A stretch of 64,000 nt of DNA from a virus (lineage: Duplodnaviria > Heunggongvirae > Uroviricota > Caudoviricetes): the IMG/VR virus record IMGVR_UViG_2690316121_000006. One strand, 5' to 3'. The notes below the pieces were generated by a model. It was not told the DNA's origin. It ran no database searches and worked only from the letters and a program-made list of their open reading frames with translations. Each line of letters opens with the position of its first letter. The first letter of the stretch is position 1. This document shows positions 31,033-37,831 of the stretch, in pieces. A program made the translations under genes and the position numbers.

Positions 31033-31548
31033 TTAAAATCGGTAACCGACACCAAGCATCCAAATGCTATTGCTTAGATCACCTGGTTTAGAACGTTCAT
31101 ACGAGAGATCAACTGCAAACTGCGGAGCTGGGTTAAATTGAAGCCCAAGTCCATAAGCAAAATCGGTTCCAAAGCCAGCATATGACTGTCCATTCAGTTT
31201 TGCTGTTGCATCCGCATGGCTTAAACCCACCAAACCGTATGCACTCAGCAATTCATTGAATCTGTATGATGGACCAAAAGTAAATGAGGCATACTCAACC
31301 TTGGCTTTGGCGGCATTCCATAGGTTTGTGTTTGACTTTTCGTAAGTGAGCGAAGCTAATCCACCCCACGTAGGATCCATTTCGTAGCGATATTTAATAT
31401 TCACGCCTTTTGGATCTTTTATATCTCCGCCTTTAATCGTTGCGCTTCCTTGGGCAAAGTCTAAAGAAAGAGTGTGCTGATATGCGGAGGCAGTCCCAGC
31501 AACCCCCAAGGCACATGCCAGAAGGGCCGTTAAAACTACTTTTTTCAT
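31033..31548 (-). CDS. Ail/Lom/PagC-family outer-membrane beta-barrel protein
   Basis: 171 aa; signal peptide, NIKYRYE, GLQFNP...DLSYE and C-terminal LGVGYRF, collinear with lambda Lom as recalled. Confidence 0.85.
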   Translation of the reverse strand: MKKVVLTALLACALGVAGTASAYQHTLSLDFAQGSATIKGGDIKDPKGVNIKYRYEMDPTWGGLASLTYEKSNTNLWNAAKAKVEYASFTFGPSYRFNELLSAYGLVGLSHADATAKLNGQSYAGFGTDFAYGLGLQFNPAPQFAVDLSYERSKPGDLSNSIWMLGVGYRF

Positions 31549-31643
31549 GGAAAAAGTTACCTATAAAAACGTTAAAAATAATACTGGTGACAAAATAGTG
31601 TGTATTGAGCGTTAAATACACGTAAAGATTCTATCATTCGCGA

Positions 31644-32486
31644 TCAGCCGCGAAAACCAGTTGGAATATAAAATTCCTTTTCTTTTCTGGTAGATAGGAC
31701 CATATCCAGAGCCTCGTTTACCGTCATGCAATGCGGCAGATTATCGAAGTTTGATATCCCGCCCATATCAGGAGAACGCTTGTTCTTCAGGTAAGCATAT
31801 TTCCGCGCTGCCGCCTCTACTTTCTGCTTGAACTCATGTTTTTGAGCGCGTTTTTTGGATAACCGCAGATTGTCAGCCTTTGCTTTTGCCTCAGCGATCC
31901 AGGAAGTCAAATTTTTGAGCCTGGTCGTTCCGGCACCGCCGGAAACTGATCTTTTTGTTTTTTTAATTTGTGACTTCTTATTCTTTATTGCCACGTCATC
32001 CTGACAGGGGGAGGGGGTATCATTTTGACATGGGGGTGTGGATAAAAAATCAAATAAAGCCAATGTCTTAGCGAGAACAGCTTTAACCTTTGTTGCGGCT
32101 GAAGAGATCTTTAATTTGCTTTCAATTAGCGCATTTTTGGCTTGTTGAGCAAAGGCTAAAAAGGATGGTGTAAACCGGTACAGGTTAGCGCGGCGTTCAC
32201 GGTGATCGCCGATAATAATCTCTACCGACAGGATTCCTTTGTTTACAGCTTCACGGAATGCGCGAACGACGGTTGATTGGCTATAACCAGTTTCTGCCGC
32301 GATCATGCGGTGAGGCTTGTGAATGAAGTATTCACTGGTTGTTGCCGCGAGATTTGCACATTGCGACAGGATATGCCCGGCACTACGGGATAGACCGGAG
32401 TGTGTTACAAAGCAGGCTAATTCATAGCCAGAAAAAGTAAAATCGCTCATCGTTATACAGCTCAGGAAAGTGACTTTAGCCAGCAT
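31644..32486 (-). CDS. HTH protein, lytic replication protein RepL-like
   Basis: 280 aa with HTH (IAAETGYSQSTVVRAFREAVNKGIL); second gene of the operon headed by the KilA-N gene; the RepL assignment is by position and size only. Confidence 0.5.
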   Translation of the reverse strand: MLAKVTFLSCITMSDFTFSGYELACFVTHSGLSRSAGHILSQCANLAATTSEYFIHKPHRMIAAETGYSQSTVVRAFREAVNKGILSVEIIIGDHRERRANLYRFTPSFLAFAQQAKNALIESKLKISSAATKVKAVLAKTLALFDFLSTPPCQNDTPSPCQDDVAIKNKKSQIKKTKRSVSGGAGTTRLKNLTSWIAEAKAKADNLRLSKKRAQKHEFKQKVEAAARKYAYLKNKRSPDMGGISNFDNLPHCMTVNEALDMVLSTRKEKEFYIPTGFRG

Positions 32487-32515: not shown

Positions 32516-33316
32516 TTAGCGCGTAGCTGCGACAGGTACCAGCACACCAGCATCAAGCAATCGCTTCATTAGCCACTGCTGACCTTTGCCGGTTATACGA
32601 GTCGTGAAAGAAATCCTGCTTCCGTTGCTTGTGTCGATCACGGTTTCTTTGAGGGTGAAGTACCCACGGGATATGTATTCTTGTTTGGGGACGTTCCTGC
32701 GTTCACCGGTTGCGATCAGAATTCCGTTATCACGCAACCAGGTGAAGAGATAGTTTTGGCCCAGGCCGAGCACTTTGGCATAGTTGCCGATTAGAACCCC
32801 GCTGGCGGTAGCAACGCGTTCGGCGAATTCGACTTTAGGTGCATCCATAAGCATTTTTTGCTCCAGCCGTTGCTTTTGCTCTGCCAGGTCGGCAGCCAAA
32901 CGGAGAGCTTCAGGGAGACTCTGCGGAATAGCAGGTTGTAATCTTCCGGCTCGATAGTCGATAAATGTCTGGTTTACCTTCAGCCGAAATGCGGGAGAAA
33001 TCCAGCCTGCGTACTCCACAGCGAGCAATTCATGGGCAAAAGTGCCGCCGCCACGGCCTTCGAACGAAACTATGCACTTCTGCATAGTTTCTTTTTCAAG
33101 CTCTTCGATGAGCTGTTTGGCTGACAGCGTTCTTAGCCATTGAGCTGGCGCTTTATGGGCACCGAGTCCGCTCGCTCTGTGTAGAGCATTAAGGTTGTAA
33201 CGGCCAGCGCGGTCGGTCGTAATTTCAACACCACAAATAACAGGCAGAGTGGTTGAAGGATCGACATTTTGATGAAGGTTTGATATATTCATATCCGCAT
33301 TGAATGTTTGTTGCAT
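32516..33316 (-). CDS. kilA: KilA-N domain protein with KilA-C/antirepressor-type C-terminus
   Basis: 266 aa; N-terminal KilA-N pattern, C-terminal half paralogous to the C-terminus of 33481-34524. Confidence 0.65.
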   Translation of the reverse strand: MQQTFNADMNISNLHQNVDPSTTLPVICGVEITTDRAGRYNLNALHRASGLGAHKAPAQWLRTLSAKQLIEELEKETMQKCIVSFEGRGGGTFAHELLAVEYAGWISPAFRLKVNQTFIDYRAGRLQPAIPQSLPEALRLAADLAEQKQRLEQKMLMDAPKVEFAERVATASGVLIGNYAKVLGLGQNYLFTWLRDNGILIATGERRNVPKQEYISRGYFTLKETVIDTSNGSRISFTTRITGKGQQWLMKRLLDAGVLVPVAATR

Positions 33317-33385: not shown

Positions 33386-33402
33386 AAATTTATTAGAGCA
33401 AA
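33386..33402 (-). promoter_or_regulatory. C1-type operator (16/17)
   Basis: Plus AAATTTATTAGAGCAAA; reverse strand reads TTTGCTCTAATAAATTT, about 70 bp upstream of the KilA-N gene start. Confidence 0.55.
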
Positions 33403-33445
33403 TTTTTCTGACTCGATCCAGATCGGGTTGGACGATCTGCTCAGA

Positions 33446-33476
33446 AACCTGCCAGTTTGCTGGCAGGTTTTTTTCT
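33446..33476. terminator. hairpin with T-tract (orientation ambiguous)
   Basis: AACCTGCCAG-TTTG-CTGGCAGGTT followed by TTTTTTTC on the plus strand, between the antirepressor gene and the operator. Confidence 0.4.
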
Positions 33477-33480
33477 TTTG

Positions 33481-34524
33481 TTAACCTATTGCTACTGGTT
33501 TTAACAAACCAGCATCAAGTAGCTTGCGAGTTAACCACTGCTGGCCTTTACCCGTTAATTGTGGCGTCAGCCGTATCTGATAGCCATTTTCATCATCCAG
33601 CACCACTTCTTTCACCGTGAAATACCCGGCGTTAATGTACTGCTGGCGCGGTACGTTTTTGCGCGCACCAAAAGCCATGAGAATGCCGTTCTGGCGCAAC
33701 CATGAGAAAAGGGCGTTTTGCTTAAGTCCAACGACCTTTGCAAAGTTACCGATCAGGATTCCATTAGCCACTGATACCCGGTCGGCAAAATCGACTTTAG
33801 GTGCTGCGGCCACCAGCTGTTGTTCCAGATGCATTTTCTGTTCTGCCAACTCGGCAGCCAGGCGTAGGGCTTCTGGTAATGTTTGGGGGATCGATGGGGT
33901 AGGGGAGTTTGCCTGCTGTAATTCTTCCAGTTTGTCGATCAGCGAACGGCGGACCGCTTTTGACTCGCGCGCGGCGACTCGCAGGGCTTGTTTGTAGGTC
34001 ATGGTTATGACCTCAAAAGAGCGCCCGGCCCTTGTGCCATGGGATTTTACGAAAGTTTCGTAAAATTCCCCATCAAGTTCATCCTTAATTCTATTGAGAA
34101 AATCGTTATTGCGGATCTCATTTTCCCCACATAGCTTGCGCGCATCATTAACCATCTTTAACAGCGTCTGGCTGTCGATTGTGTCTCCAGTGTTGGAGAT
34201 AACATTCACAGCTGGTGATGGCGTAGCTGACGTAACAGGTGCTGTTTTTTCAACATTCAAATTATTACCGGTCATTCTATGTGCCTCCTTTCTCATTTCT
34301 GCTGCCACTGTTGCGTAACGTAGACGTCCTTGTTCAATCAAATAATCCCTGATCTCGGCTATCAGTAGCTTGTTGATCACAGCCTTATCTGTTCGGGTAT
34401 AAAAACGTCTGGTTATCATGAAATAGTTGGCAATTGCGCCGGGGATCTCCCGTGTCGGCATACAGATTGTATGCAAGGCGATCGCTTCGGCTATTTCATT
34501 ACGGGTGACGAGAGGTGTTTTCAT
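33481..34524 (-). CDS. antirepressor (Ant-like; N-terminal Rha-type region, C-terminal KilA-C)
   Basis: 347 aa; C-terminal ...PQTLPEALRLAAELAEQK...GNFAKVVGL... paralogous to the 266-aa protein; start overlaps the stop of the upstream small ORF. Confidence 0.6.
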   Translation of the reverse strand: MKTPLVTRNEIAEAIALHTICMPTREIPGAIANYFMITRRFYTRTDKAVINKLLIAEIRDYLIEQGRLRYATVAAEMRKEAHRMTGNNLNVEKTAPVTSATPSPAVNVISNTGDTIDSQTLLKMVNDARKLCGENEIRNNDFLNRIKDELDGEFYETFVKSHGTRAGRSFEVITMTYKQALRVAARESKAVRRSLIDKLEELQQANSPTPSIPQTLPEALRLAAELAEQKMHLEQQLVAAAPKVDFADRVSVANGILIGNFAKVVGLKQNALFSWLRQNGILMAFGARKNVPRQQYINAGYFTVKEVVLDDENGYQIRLTPQLTGKGQQWLTRKLLDAGLLKPVAIG

Positions 34525-34742
34525 AAACCCCCCTGAACGTCGGCAGAGAAGGGGAGGTTCCAGTAACTAAGTGAATTGCGCGAGTCAGTAGAAAAACGGG
34601 CAGTAAAAATGCAGGGGCCATCAGGCAATTGAGAGCGTGCTTCGTCTTCTGTTGCTGCGATAACGAAGTGATAGTGGTGTTTTTTACAGGAATAGAAACG
34701 CCAGATAAATTCAGGGCGCGCGCAAGGATTGGCATTAACCAT
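34521..34742 (-). CDS. small protein, Icd-like by position
   Basis: 73-aa ORF overlapping the antirepressor start, downstream of a structured non-coding leader. Confidence 0.4.
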   Translation of the reverse strand: MVNANPCARPEFIWRFYSCKKHHYHFVIAATEDEARSQLPDGPCIFTARFSTDSRNSLSYWNLPFSADVQGGL

Positions 34743-34794
34743 AGTTACGGCCTCACAATCAGGTTTAACAACCTGCTACCCGCTGCTAAACAGG

Positions 34795-34875
34795 TGGCAG
34801 GACGTGACGGGGTTAGCAGACTGGCGATTGTGAAACCAGCAGGCCGAAGCCTCCCCATCACGCCCCACCATAATT
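34795..34875 (-). ncRNA. candidate c4-like antisense RNA (boundaries approximate)
   Basis: ORF-free leader containing a GGCUUCGGCC tetraloop hairpin and a UCUGCUAAC element complementary to GUUUAGCAG repeats that flank it upstream and just before the small ORF. Confidence 0.3.
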
Positions 34876-35056
34876 TGGGCGTAACGCGGTTTTACGGACA
34901 CAAAAATACCGCAATATCGGATATCTGCGGCTGTCCGCACAATCATTCAGGCTGCTAAACCCGGTCGCAGAATTTGCTACGACAGCGGAACTATAAGCCT
35001 GAACGATTAAAAGGTCAATATGATGCGAAAAGATAGCATTCGCGACTTAAAAACAC

Positions 35057-35073
35057 AAATTTATTAGAGCATT
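35057..35073 (-). promoter_or_regulatory. C1-type operator (16/17), Op51-like
   Basis: Plus AAATTTATTAGAGCATT; sits at the head of the reverse immunity operon and 70-100 bp upstream of the forward AT-rich module. Confidence 0.55.
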
Positions 35074-35169
35074 GATTGTATAATAAATACACAAATGGAG
35101 CTAATAACCTCTTTTTTTTAAAGGCGAAAATATGTACCCTAAATGGGGTATAAGGCAGGTGAGGTTTTA

Positions 35170-35808
35170 ATGAGAAAACTATTACTACCGTTATTATTTA
35201 TGGCTGGGACTGTTAATGCAGCATCAAGTGTAAAGGAGATTTGTACAGATTATACGAAATACCTTGGGCACGTTTACGGTTTCACTGTCAGTCAGGACGG
35301 CAAAATGAAAAAAGCTCTCCAGAATGATATGACACGCTTAAGTTTGTCTGAAGCAATGGTTCAGCAAGAAATGTATAAGGTTGCGACAGATGATGCTGCA
35401 AAAATGTATTATTCGAAATTTCTTAATCCTAATCTTAATGAATATAACCGTTCGGCTTTTAATCAGATGGTAGCGTATTGTGAAACTGCACCAGATATGA
35501 TGATTCCTAGTTGGGCTGTATTAGTGGCTAATGGAAAAATTCGCAAAGAAGACCAAGGAAAATCTTTAAGTAGCTATATAAATAGCGAACAATTTCTGAA
35601 TGCGCGTGGCATGCGTACTCAAAATACTCAAGGTGCGCTTGAGCGGAGGGCTTTAGGGATCGCTGATACAAATGATACTGATAATTTGCCCCCTGGAATA
35701 AAAAAATGTGTTGAAACTAAGTTAGCTCTAATGAAACGGGACAGCCCTAACATTCCTGTTTCACAACTTACCGCTACGGCAACTAGTCTCTGCAAAGACG
35801 GGCTTTAA
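35170..35808 (+). CDS. secreted protein, unknown function
   Basis: Start MRKLLLPLLFMAGTVNA-A (Sec signal) with AGGTGAGG RBS; ORF track begins 27 nt earlier; AT-rich codon usage. Confidence 0.5.
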   Translation: MRKLLLPLLFMAGTVNAASSVKEICTDYTKYLGHVYGFTVSQDGKMKKALQNDMTRLSLSEAMVQQEMYKVATDDAAKMYYSKFLNPNLNEYNRSAFNQMVAYCETAPDMMIPSWAVLVANGKIRKEDQGKSLSSYINSEQFLNARGMRTQNTQGALERRALGIADTNDTDNLPPGIKKCVETKLALMKRDSPNIPVSQLTATATSLCKDGL

Positions 35809-35872
35809 ATGTAAAGATATTCGAAGAAATGTTATTTTAAGGCGTTTTATCTGTGACTGGAGATAGCTAATC

Positions 35873-36223
35873 ATGTCATCTGAACATGTTCGTAAAGGTG
35901 TAACAAATGCGAAATTCAATGAAGAGCAATCTAATATTCTCTTTATTGAAATAGGAATTCTGTCAATACTGATAGGTTTAATGTCTAGATCATGGTGGGC
36001 CTTTGGCGGTTCTTTTCTTGGACTGATTTTTAGTTTAAGAATAAAATTTCTGGCAATACCATTGATGATTGTCTTTAGCTTAGTATGGGGAGCTATTGGC
36101 TATAGTATTGGTACTTTGTTTGAATCAACAGCAGCAAGTATTGTTTTGGGGGTAATTGCTTTCCTGAGTGGCTTGGGTACTCATTTTGCTGCCGTGCAAT
36201 GGGCAAATGATATTGCAGAATAG
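35873..36223 (+). CDS. small polytopic inner-membrane protein
   Basis: 116 aa, three or four hydrophobic helices. Confidence 0.5.
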   Translation: MSSEHVRKGVTNAKFNEEQSNILFIEIGILSILIGLMSRSWWAFGGSFLGLIFSLRIKFLAIPLMIVFSLVWGAIGYSIGTLFESTAASIVLGVIAFLSGLGTHFAAVQWANDIAE

Positions 36224-36245
36224 TTACAGATAAGAAGCGAAAAGA

Positions 36246-36722
36246 ATGAATATGAGATGGTTTTTATTATTTGTATCGTTAGTTTCAGCAGGATCATTTG
36301 CAAAAGTTGATCCTCTACAATGGAATGTAATTGAAGAGAGAGGGGGAAGAGAATATACAATCCATAATCATAATGGTGATAAGATAAGTTTTTTATGTGA
36401 TATGGGATTCATGTATGGTTCACCAGATAGTGCAGGTAGTTTAGGCTTGTTGCTAAGTTCGTCGAATAATAAAAAGGAGTATAATGCTGACAAGAATAAA
36501 ATAGTATTAACTATAGATGGTGAGCAATATCCTTTTAGCAATCTTGGGTCAATGGTTGGAGATTCTTGGTGGTATGCCTTTTGGCAAGATGCAGCAGATT
36601 CAAATGCTAATATGATTGATGCTTATGTTGATAATGAAAAAATTGCTACATTCCCTCTTTCTGGGCTAAGTAAGTTGTATCAACAAGCCAAAATGGATGG
36701 ATGTATTAAACGGGGCAAATGA
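36246..36722 (+). CDS. secreted protein, unknown function
   Basis: 158 aa; N-terminal MNMRWFLLFVSLVSAGSFA signal peptide. Confidence 0.5.
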   Translation: MNMRWFLLFVSLVSAGSFAKVDPLQWNVIEERGGREYTIHNHNGDKISFLCDMGFMYGSPDSAGSLGLLLSSSNNKKEYNADKNKIVLTIDGEQYPFSNLGSMVGDSWWYAFWQDAADSNANMIDAYVDNEKIATFPLSGLSKLYQQAKMDGCIKRGK

Positions 36723-36763
36723 TCTTTCTGTGTTAAAGACTAACGCAACCAATAAAACATTGG

Positions 36764-37831
36764 TTGCGTAATATTCTATTATATAGATGGAATAATATGA
36801 CCAAAATTACTAATTCTAATGAGTTGGAGTTACTGTACAAACAGTCAGTAATCATTCCATCATACAAAGATCACGTAGCGATTTTGCAAAAACAATTAGG
36901 AATAGAAAAATATTCTTTTCAAAATATGACAAGATTGAATAGACAAGCTGTAATTAGTAACTCTCTTCGGAAACAATTGGCTAGTATGCCGAACTTGGCT
37001 GGAATAGGCAGCAAGTATCGTGAACATATCGCGATTTTACAGAAACAGACTCAGGCTCTTTTTCCTCATGACGCAAATAAATACATTCAAATGCTAAGGA
37101 AACAGGCAGAAATTGCTATGCCGTTGCGAAACCAGTTAGAGATACTTAATAAACAGGCTGGTTTAAATAACATGCAGGCGATGCTTAATGAATTAAGACA
37201 ACATGTAAATTATAAGACAGATTTTAATAATGGAATAGCACTATTATTAAAACAATATACTCTGGCAAAAGGTTCTCCATTGCATCAAGTAATGGAGCAA
37301 GGTCTTTCATCTATTGCACAGGCTTATGCTGAAGGTGCTACTGAAACATCACACACGAAAAGTAATGTTCAAAATAAAGGATTAAATAAATATAGCTCAA
37401 AGTTTGTTGATTCATTTAAAGAGCTTCCTTATCCACTGCAATGGTTACTAATGGTTATATTTTCTCAAGTTGTGTTTGGTGCTTTTATTGATTACGGAAA
37501 AGAGAAAACCTTGCTGGGAATACACAAGGCAGAATCATATGTTATATCGCTGTTTGAGGATAAACCAATATCAAAACAACAAATAATTAAAGAAAACAAA
37601 GAAATTAGTTGGGAAGATCTCAATGGTTTTCGTTTTATAACTGGTGAGAACGTAAGATTACACGTCAGTCCGTCTATAAATAGTGAGGTTATTGAATGCA
37701 TTGGCAAAAATACTATAGTGGCTGTTTTAGATAAAAAAGATCGCCAATGGCTTTTCGTGCAGGTTAAATCAGGGGACGAGTTTATTACTGGATGGATTAC
37801 ACGAACATACACAAAGCCTCTTAAGGCTTGA
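36764..37831 (+). CDS. repeat-TM-SH3b-like protein
   Basis: 355 aa: about 22-aa periodic repeats with LxKQ cores, one TM helix (LQWLLMVIFSQVVFGAFIDYG), C-terminal bacterial SH3-like segment (...VRLHVSPS...GDEFITGWITRTYTKPL). Confidence 0.5.
   Translation: MRNILLYRWNNMTKITNSNELELLYKQSVIIPSYKDHVAILQKQLGIEKYSFQNMTRLNRQAVISNSLRKQLASMPNLAGIGSKYREHIAILQKQTQALFPHDANKYIQMLRKQAEIAMPLRNQLEILNKQAGLNNMQAMLNELRQHVNYKTDFNNGIALLLKQYTLAKGSPLHQVMEQGLSSIAQAYAEGATETSHTKSNVQNKGLNKYSSKFVDSFKELPYPLQWLLMVIFSQVVFGAFIDYGKEKTLLGIHKAESYVISLFEDKPISKQQIIKENKEISWEDLNGFRFITGENVRLHVSPSINSEVIECIGKNTIVAVLDKKDRQWLFVQVKSGDEFITGWITRTYTKPLKA

Follow-up and report, generated by a model that had tools for sequence, protein, structure and literature searches.

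What kind of regulatory circuit lies at positions 33386-35073 on the minus strand of this viral DNA, and which immunity would it confer on its host? An earlier note on the same 64-kb stretch (hereafter the window, meaning the whole of the DNA analysed) had proposed an immI-type c4/icd/ant circuit beside a kilA/repL-type lytic replicon. That proposal is borne out by Rfam matches to the C4 RNA, by matches to Icd-like (NCBIfam) and Ant (PHROGs) proteins, and by 95.8-96.1% nucleotide identity to the annotated genes of P1 and P7 over the 3.5 kb of c4-icd-ant-kilA-repL. Judged from its sequence, the region almost certainly holds an immunity operon of the immI type (c4-icd-ant1/ant2), still intact, with C4 in its P7 allele and a C1-controlled kilA-repL lytic replicon behind it, on an IncY phage-plasmid related to P1. 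Its limits are exactly the C1 operators Op53 and Op51, the element is a Punavirus (P1-like, IncY), the region is 99.3% identical to the Escherichia coli plasmid CP056621.1, and when the P1 annotation was mapped onto the sequence all regulatory elements annotated in P1 were recovered. Nearly all of the elements listed in the earlier note were found where it had placed them, and we see no sequence evidence contradicting the immI explanation. The immI module of a P1-like E. coli plasmid prophage is an already known system, and the window holds nothing new in this respect; a textbook phage regulatory circuit was recognisable from raw sequence and could be confirmed base for base.

On the minus strand, to which all coordinates below refer unless otherwise given, the order of elements is Op51, P51a/P51b, a1, b1, c4, a2, b2, icd, ant1/ant2, a hairpin, Op53/P53, kilA and repL. 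As had been predicted, the region is flanked by an operator at each end. Op51 (Oc4; AATGCTCTAATAAATTT, 35057-35073) is identical to P1 Oc4 and overlaps the -35 element of the C1-controlled promoter P51a (P2c4, 35030-35059; -35 TTTGTGT, -10 TATCTT), which was mapped from the P1 annotation and differs from it by one base in the -35 element. Downstream of the operator lies P51b (P1c4, 34990-35018), with TTGACC and TATAGT separated by a 17-nt spacer, which is identical to its P1 counterpart and was also recovered by a promoter scan with 10/12 matches. At the other end, Op53 (OrepL; TTTGCTCTAATAAATTT, 33386-33402) is identical to P1 OrepL and overlaps the -10 element (33392-33397) of P53/PkilA, whose -35 element lies at 33415-33420; the P53 promoter is likewise identical to that of P1, and apart from the single base in P51a all promoter and operator hexamers are as in P1. 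Searching the window with the 17-mer C1 operator consensus, allowing up to three mismatches, gave seven sites against 0.32 expected, a number reached in 0/100 shuffles. The genes c1 and coi gave no tblastn match within the window, and in P1 both map to a part of the genome that has no counterpart in the window. Because the C1 repressor gene is absent from the window, we infer C1 control from the operators together with the P1-like character of the element throughout.

Two further elements lie around the boundary with kilA. PaskilA (P53as, 33261-33289, plus strand), with TCGACA, a 17-nt spacer and TATATT, is antisense to the 5' end of kilA, is identical to the P1 annotation and was found by the scan with 10/12 matches and an extended TG. 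Between ant and Op53 a terminator scan detected a 13-bp GC-rich hairpin (33443-33472, assigned to neither strand). Since its T-run is found on the plus strand only, this hairpin likely terminates the antisense RNA that starts at PaskilA, and it may possibly also act as a weak stop for the immI operon.

The four open reading frames icd, ant1, kilA and repL are all intact and full length, with the expected domains. Icd, the cell-division inhibitor (34521-34742, 73 aa), is identical at 71/73 residues to the Icd proteins of both P1 and P7 and matches NCBIfam NF033153 (Icd-like, 3.6e-14); no Pfam family was found for it. Consistent with the prediction of a 73-aa ORF overlapping a 347-aa antirepressor, the icd stop and the ant1 start share an ATGA at 34521-34524. 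Ant1 (33481-34524, 347 aa) contains an ANT/KilAC domain, matches Pfam ANT (1e-30) and phrog_63 (anti-repressor Ant, 4.7e-103), and has 93.7% amino acid identity to P1 Ant1 and 89.9% to that of P7. The nested in-frame ant2, mapped from P1, starts at an ATG at 34275 preceded by a GGAGG Shine-Dalgarno. Identity to P1 and P7 falls to 73-82% in the central segment of ant1 (about 34008-34208), and for this reason the interaction of Ant with C1 is assumed here.

Downstream of Op53, kilA (32516-33316, 266 aa) encodes a protein with KilA-N and ANT/KilAC domains by Pfam and 99.2% amino acid identity to P1 KilA. It is followed by repL (31644-32486, 280 aa), encoding the lytic replication initiator according to the P1 annotation, with 92.9-93.6% amino acid identity to P1 and P7 and a match to phrog_2418 (2.3e-150); the last ~20 residues of RepL are unlike both P1 and P7. 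According to the P1 annotation, oriL lies inside the repL gene. Of the operator-gated pair of a KilA-N and an HTH protein that had been predicted, the KilA-N part was recovered by Pfam, but RepL matched neither a family nor an HTH model in Pfam or NCBIfam, its only match being in PHROGs, although PGAP calls some orthologues "helix-turn-helix domain-containing protein".

The stretch between Op51 and the icd ATG had been described in the earlier note as an ORF-free, structured leader of about 300 nt, to be checked by an Rfam scan for C4. The length (314 nt) and the structure (z = -6.0 for a 249-nt leader fold) both hold, but the leader is not free of ORFs, since it contains a 56-aa ATG ORF at 34776-34946. 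The Rfam scan detected two models over their full length: RF01695 (C4 antisense RNA) at 34790-34875, with 69.6 bits, E = 1.7e-11 and model positions 1-87 of 87 (gathering threshold 45 bits), and, 75 nt upstream of C4, RF03163 (c4-a1b1) at 34944-34996, with 54.2 bits and model positions 1-53 of 53 (gathering threshold 46.7 bits). Mapping of the P1 misc_RNA c4, together with RF01695 and the fold, places the 77-nt C4 RNA at 34793-34869, where it is identical to P7 C4 at 77/77 positions. It folds (-44.9 kcal/mol, z = -5.7) into an acceptor-like stem with a 3' ACC tail and leaves two recognition sequences exposed, b' (CACAATC, 34826-34832) in a hairpin loop and a' (CTGCTAA, 34813-34819) as single strand. 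The sequence is compatible with RNase P cutting the operon transcript to release C4 as an RNA of ~77 nt, as judged from the P7 identity, the acceptor-like stem and the 3' ACC tail. C4 has been listed among RNase P substrates (PMC5499578). Two intramolecular structures of the leader were considered and rejected: a 16-bp long-range helix in the minimum free energy fold, which is absent in leaders with b' of the CGTAAGT and CACAAGT types, lacks compensating changes and in P1 is weak, and a cis a1:a' pairing in the precursor, with a predicted probability of about 0 for the leader of this element.

Complementary elements in the leader had also been predicted, and one pair was correctly identified: GTTTAGCAG occurs twice, at 34960-34952 and 34791-34783, and its partner CTGCTAAC lies at 34819-34812 within C4, the exact Watson-Crick match of this a pair being 7 nt (TTAGCAG/CTGCTAA). 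A second pair, GAUUGUG/CACAAUC, had been overlooked: GATTGTG(A), found at 34944-34938 and again at 34760-34753, has its complement in CACAATC (34832-34826). Accordingly, the leader carries a1 (TTAGCAG, 34952-34958) and b1 (GATTGTG, 34938-34944) with the c4-a1b1 motif upstream of C4, both exact complements of the C4 loops, and a second set downstream, namely a2 (TTAGCAG, 34783-34789), 3 nt beyond the C4 3' end, and b2 (GATTGTGA, 34753-34760), which overlaps the icd Shine-Dalgarno TGAGG (34751-34755). The a2 and b2 boxes, located by P1 mapping as well as by complementarity and covariation, complement the C4 loops exactly over 7 nt and 8 nt, and by shuffling all four boxes would arise by chance with a probability of about 1e-8. 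In 10 aligned leaders both a1b1:a'b' and a'b':a2b2 were 100% paired, with eight pairs changed on both sides in each set, while slid controls were 25-52% paired. The role of a1/b1 is labelled "putative" even in the annotation of P1 itself. The earlier note had not seen that the a and b pairs each occur both upstream and downstream of c4, that the recognition sequences are those of the P7 allele, or that C4 and its target share a transcript.

These elements suggest how the operon would work; the steps from transcription to the shut-off of Ant are followed here at the level of sequence, with the biochemistry known from P1 and P7 and extended to this element. Two promoters would drive transcription, P51a, which C1 blocks through Op51, and P51b, which lies beyond the operator, and RNase P would cut the 77-nt C4 free from the 5' part of the transcript, as in P1 and P7. 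C4 would then display b' (CACAAUC) in its hairpin loop and a' (CUGCUAA) as single strand from an acceptor-like stem with an ACC tail, and pair with a2 (UUAGCAG) and b2 (GAUUGUGA) on the mRNA of its own operon. Since the transcript from which C4 would be excised also carries its target, C4 differs from classical antisense RNAs, which are transcribed convergently. Since b2 overlaps the icd Shine-Dalgarno, pairing would block icd translation, and with ant1 translation coupled to icd through the ATGA overlap, Ant1 and Ant2 would not be made and C1 repression, and hence lysogeny, would be kept; in P1 an untranslated icd also leads to premature Rho-dependent transcription termination. If C4 were titrated or mismatched, for instance when a phage with a different type of C4 superinfects, Ant would be produced together with Icd, an inhibitor of FtsZ; Ant would inactivate C1, and the opening of Op53 would allow KilA and RepL to start lytic replication. 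Work on the C4 mechanism is said to have been published by Citron & Schuster (Cell 1990 and NAR 1992), the link from translational repression to termination reportedly by Biere et al. (Genes Dev 1992), and further P1/P7 background reportedly by Hartmann et al. (PNAS 1995) and Lobocka et al. (J Bacteriol 2004). The P1/P7 literature covers the mechanism, heteroimmunity, processing by RNase P and the Icd-FtsZ relation (PMC8198154, PMC12197685, PMC6906374, PMC5499578, PMC11897509).

The 56-aa ORF in the leader raises the question of whether the secondary repressor is a protein, the historical "c4 protein", instead of an RNA. The ORF has an ATG, spans c4 and matches phrog_16064 with 4.4e-46, and the annotations of X15639 and phage JL22 both list it as a CDS. 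However, among scorable viral-contig relatives its start, stop and frame vary: start and stop occur in 13 combinations, there are 32 distinct products, and some are truncated or fused to icd. The RNA pairings of these loci are perfectly kept, and phrog_16064 is most simply the same overlapping ORF annotated repeatedly. According to the accounts of Citron & Schuster 1990 given in PMC8198154 and PMC12197685, c4 was shown by genetics to be an RNA. As the frame is not conserved among relatives despite the PHROG match, we rejected the protein-coding reading of the ORF across c4, which we regard as next to impossible. It is hardly any more credible that C4, although an RNA, acts mainly in cis within the precursor, where a1/b1 or a long-range helix would shape processing, and not in trans on a2/b2. 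The conservation and covariation of a1/b1 are as perfect as those of a2/b2, and in the minimum free energy fold of the leader the a1 region forms a 16-bp helix with the a2-b2 spacer, both of which such a role would accommodate. Nevertheless, the established site of action is the icd Shine-Dalgarno, which b2 overlaps, and C4 is described as trans-acting (PMC8546580); a model in which C4 acts in cis only is refuted by the repression of icd/ant in trans by plasmid-supplied C4, which has been reported for P1/P7.

Another reading is that the operon has decayed on a cryptic plasmid, so that it retains the signatures of the switch and no longer works. In favour of decay, the C1 gene is absent from the window, the central segment of ant1 and the 3' end of repL are mosaic, and P1-like plasmids often have modified or deleted immI regions (PMC6906374). 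Against it, the four ORFs are full length, the promoter and operator hexamers match P1 save for one base, C4 and its targets are perfectly matched, the remainder of the window is contiguous P1-like DNA with 96-99% identity, and a near-identical complete 96.7-kb IncY plasmid is known. We consider decay very improbable, and prefer an intact operon whose C4 RNA would act in trans on a2 and b2.

Which immunity this operon specifies can be read from its recognition sequences. All six boxes (a', b', a1, b1, a2 and b2) match P7 exactly and differ from P1; since C4 and its target boxes are of the P7 and not the P1 type, the element carries P7-type immI specificity, and the prophage should therefore be homoimmune with P7 and heteroimmune with P1 at immI. 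By the same reasoning, the P7 allele of C4 should exclude Ant-mediated induction by P7-type superinfecting phages and not by P1-type ones. Differences in the a/b recognition sequences are held responsible for P1/P7 heteroimmunity (PMC6906374, PMC12197685). The backbone is otherwise a P1/P7/SJ46-like mosaic, and the specific gain from this analysis is the immunity type only, which is relevant only to the typing or engineering of P1-like phage-plasmids.

Across P1-like elements, a1, b1, a2 and b2 were all exact complements of the C4 loops of their own locus in 113/113 IMG/VR loci with full flanks. Among the 120 viral contigs listed there were two a alleles, at least six b alleles and at least 11 a'/b' combinations, with all six boxes always switched together. 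The b alleles read CACAAUC, CACUAAC, CGUAAGU, CAUUCGU, CAUGUAC and CACAAGU on the C4 side, and matches are also present in 819 PLSDB plasmids and in GTDB genomes. It is conceivable, if rather doubtful, that P1-like elements build their immI specificity from modules in a combinatorial way, with a and b alleles reassorting freely. If each module adds independently to recognition, the natural set of mutually heteroimmune P1-like plasmids would be larger than the classical P1/P7 pair, and one would then also have to ask how six boxes that lie apart from each other come to change together.

The closest known system is the P7 immI operon (AF503408 / NC_050152), with which the element shares gene order, Op51, Op53 and kilA-repL, and a leader that is 99.1% identical from Op51 to the icd start. 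It differs from P7 in the DNA just upstream of Op51 (beyond 35075), which is P1-like here, in Ant1, which has 348 aa in P7 against 347 aa here, with 89.9% identity and a divergent central patch, and in its flanking cargo. P1 immI and kilA-repL (NC_005856) agree in architecture and annotated regulatory elements, with 95.8% nucleotide identity overall, whereas the recognition sequences of P1 (TTGACAG for a, GTTAGTG for b) differ at both modules from TTAGCAG and GATTGTG here, and its neighbours simABC and rlfA/B are replaced here. More distantly, the P4 CI RNA (seqA/seqB/seqC), the N15 CB RNA / antC and the lambdoid IsrK-C4-like pairs also involve a small RNA processed from the leader of the operon that it controls, with a C4-like fold (Rfam clan CL00128), and these systems have been described as structurally similar (PMC3632133); in a lambdoid-type relative (ECO95 contig), C4 scores 80.7 bits and is preceded by isrK. 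Unlike the immI operon, they have other downstream genes, P4 acts through transcription termination and has no icd/ant pair, and outside C4 these systems share little or no detectable sequence identity with the window.

The region 33386-35073 is the immI operon of phages P1 and P7, with P7-type C4 specificity and adjoining the kilA-repL lytic replicon, and as such it represents an already known system. Scanning the whole window against Rfam at gathering thresholds, the check for C4 that the earlier note had proposed, returned three tRNAs and two matches in the leader, and nothing else. The leader matches are the C4 antisense RNA (RF01695, 69.6 bits, full model, 34790-34875, reverse strand) and the a1/b1 target motif (RF03163, 54.2 bits, 34944-34996, reverse strand). 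The three tRNA genes lie at 11272-13125 on the reverse strand (64.7-74.5 bits), and P1 likewise has three. When the segment 31600-35200 was compared with phage genomes by megablast, P1 and P7 showed 95.8% and 96.1% identity, respectively, over 93-97% of the query. Their records label the matching stretch c4, icd, ant1/ant2, kilA and repL, and also give Op51, Op53, P51a/b, P53, P53as and the C4 target sites a1, b1, a2 and b2, all of which map cleanly onto the window. Protein family searches identified the 73-aa product as Icd-like (NF033153), the 347-aa product as the anti-repressor Ant (phrog_63 and Pfam ANT), KilA as carrying KilA-N plus ANT domains, and RepL as phrog_2418. The proposal of an immI-type c4/icd/ant circuit beside a kilA/repL replicon is thus supported by Rfam, by the P1/P7 annotation and by the protein families.

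With the P1 reference annotation mapped onto the window, positions 33386 and 35073 each mark the outer end of a C1-repressor operator: Op53/OrepL (33386-33402, reverse strand, TTTGCTCTAATAAATTT) and Op51/Oc4 (35057-35073, reverse strand, AATGCTCTAATAAATTT), both identical to those of P1. The 64-kb window holds seven sites that fit the C1 operator consensus with up to 3 mismatches, where 0.32 would be expected, and none of 100 shuffled sequences gave seven. Besides Op53 and Op51, two of the seven overlap in opposite orientation (13781-13797, forward, and 13792-13808, reverse) and resemble a bivalent operator, and single matches occur at 3463, 17314 and 62189. Neither c1 nor coi was found within the window by tblastn; the P1 copies map to a part of the P1 genome beyond the window's coverage.

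All genes of the locus are on the reverse strand. The leader between Op51 and icd has 314 nt, close to the 300 nt estimated from sequence, but it is not free of ORFs as had been claimed, since a 56-aa ATG ORF spans c4. Between the operators, the 73-aa ORF (icd, 34521-34742) does overlap the 347-aa antirepressor ORF (ant1, 33481-34524), with ATGA shared by the stop codon of the first and the start codon of the second, and ant2 begins at an in-frame ATG at 34275 with its own GGAGG Shine-Dalgarno sequence. The central segment of ant1/ant2 (34008-34208, ant1 codons ~105-172) is only 73-82% identical to P1/P7, while its flanks are 97-99% identical; this divergent, mosaic patch falls just after the ant2 start. 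The 266-aa KilA (32516-33316) and then the 280-aa RepL (31644-32486) lie 3' of Op53. Of the predicted KilA-N plus HTH pair the KilA-N domain was recovered, whereas no HTH was found in RepL by Pfam or NCBIfam, though PGAP labels some orthologues as HTH proteins. Over its final ~20 aa, RepL departs from its P1 and P7 counterparts.

The complementary elements quoted from the leader are present, GTTTAGCAG at 34960-34952 and 34791-34783 and its complementary element CTGCTAAC at 34819-34812, although the recognition pairs are two, a and b, rather than one. The chance of all four boxes arising in this leader is about 1e-8. The predicted fold of the 77-nt C4 (34793-34869) has -44.9 kcal/mol (z = -5.7), and in this model a long acceptor-like stem is followed by a 3' ACC tail, with a UUCG hairpin, b' in the loop of the second hairpin and a' in a single-stranded joint. 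The b2 box overlaps the icd Shine-Dalgarno sequence. Biere et al. 1992 reportedly found that, when translation of icd is repressed, transcription ends prematurely before ant is reached.

In P1 and P7, C1 acts at Op51 to repress the immI operon, and blocking Ant synthesis additionally needs the trans-acting RNA C4, an RNase P substrate; Ant1/Ant2 inactivate C1, Icd targets FtsZ to inhibit division, and RepL initiates lytic replication at oriL, with kilA in the same operon (PMC8198154, PMC8546580, PMC11897509, PMC5499578, PMC8201110). By analogy, C4 would form part of the same transcript as its target and be released from it by processing; it does not come from the strand opposite its target.

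In an alignment of ten leaders (window, P1, P7, JL22, 813R1, 673R5, SJ46, MH422554, D6 and a lambdoid-type contig), a1b1:a'b' and a'b':a2b2 were both 100% paired, with eight pairs changed on both sides in each set. Covariation scores were 0.67 and 0.62 against ~0.22 in shuffles, none of 500 of which reached the observed values, and slid controls were 25-52% paired. In a distant relative, the lambdoid-type contig OR845919 (482-677), a C4 homologue (80.7 bits) has an Rfam isrK match (53.8 bits) directly 5', in the place held by c4-a1b1 in P1-like phages; this order fits the published view of IsrK-like and C4-like RNAs as paired immunity systems (PMC3632133).

Two other readings of the window's leader were considered and rejected. 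Some phage genomes annotate the 56-aa ORF (34776-34946, reverse strand) as a CDS, and PHROGs has a family for it (phrog_16064, 4.4e-46), but among relatives the RNA pairings are kept whereas the ORF changes in frame, start and stop, and therefore it is not a credible gene; phrog_16064 is probably a database family whose source is a spurious ORF overlapping a non-coding RNA. The minimum free energy model of 249 nt of leader (34735-34983, reverse strand) includes a predicted long-range helix of 16 bp that joins CGGGUUUAGCAGCCUG in the a1 region to CAGGUUGUUAAACCUG in the a2-b2 spacer and is compatible with both a alleles via G-U/A-U pairs. This helix is weak in P1 and is lost in leaders with b' CGTAAGT or CACAAGT, where the spacer differs without compensating change, and we do not regard it as real.

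When the invariant 5' half of C4 was used to scan IMG/VR, at least 120 viral contigs matched. Among the 120 listed, a' has two alleles (CTGCTAA, CTGTCAA) and b' has six (CACAATC, CACTAAC, CGTAAGT, CATTCGT, CATGTAC, CACAAGT), which occur in at least 11 combinations. Most frequent among these is the P7-type combination found in the window (28/120; P1 type, 14/120), and in all 113 listed loci with full flanks a1, b1, a2 and b2 exactly complement their own C4. JL22, a natural hybrid, combines the a type of P1 with the b type of P7, and D6 combines the a type of P1 with the b type of SJ46. C4 specificity is modular in P1-like relatives, a combinatorial diversity of a/b modules that belongs to the family more than to the window locus.

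As a P1-like phage-plasmid the element is common, and it is an ordinary IncY plasmid prophage of E. coli: Punavirus DNA makes up the remainder of the window as one contiguous stretch (96-99% identity), the closest complete replicon is the 96.7-kb IncY E. coli plasmid CP056621.1 (99.3%), and 819 PLSDB plasmids match the region. Left of ~31708 the P1/P7 match ends and SJ46-like elements match instead (31033-31708); an Ail/Lom-type outer-membrane beta-barrel gene (31033-31548, reverse strand) replaces Op55 and rlfA/rlfB of P1, and CP056621.1 has a hokD toxin gene near it. At 35143-37831 (forward strand), the simABC superimmunity genes of P1 are replaced by genes for a 221-aa secreted protein, two proteins of 116 and 158 aa and an SH3-domain protein of 355 aa; the 221-aa protein gave no Pfam match and is labelled 'simA domain protein' in CP056621.1.

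Specificity was assigned from a three-way alignment and an explicit complementarity search. The P7 C4 is identical to that of the window, the P7 leader is 99.1% identical, and the four mRNA boxes (34753-34958 in the window) are the same (a1 and a2, TTAGCAG; b1, GATTGTG; b2, GATTGTGA). In contrast, DNA immediately 5' of Op51 is P1-like and not P7-like, and thus the element is a mosaic. The P1 C4 differs at five positions, four of them within the recognition sequences (b', CACAATC in the window and CACTAAC in P1; a', CTGCTAA and CTGTCAA), and it is to these minor C4/target differences that the heteroimmunity of P1 and P7 has been attributed (PMC6906374; PMC12197685).
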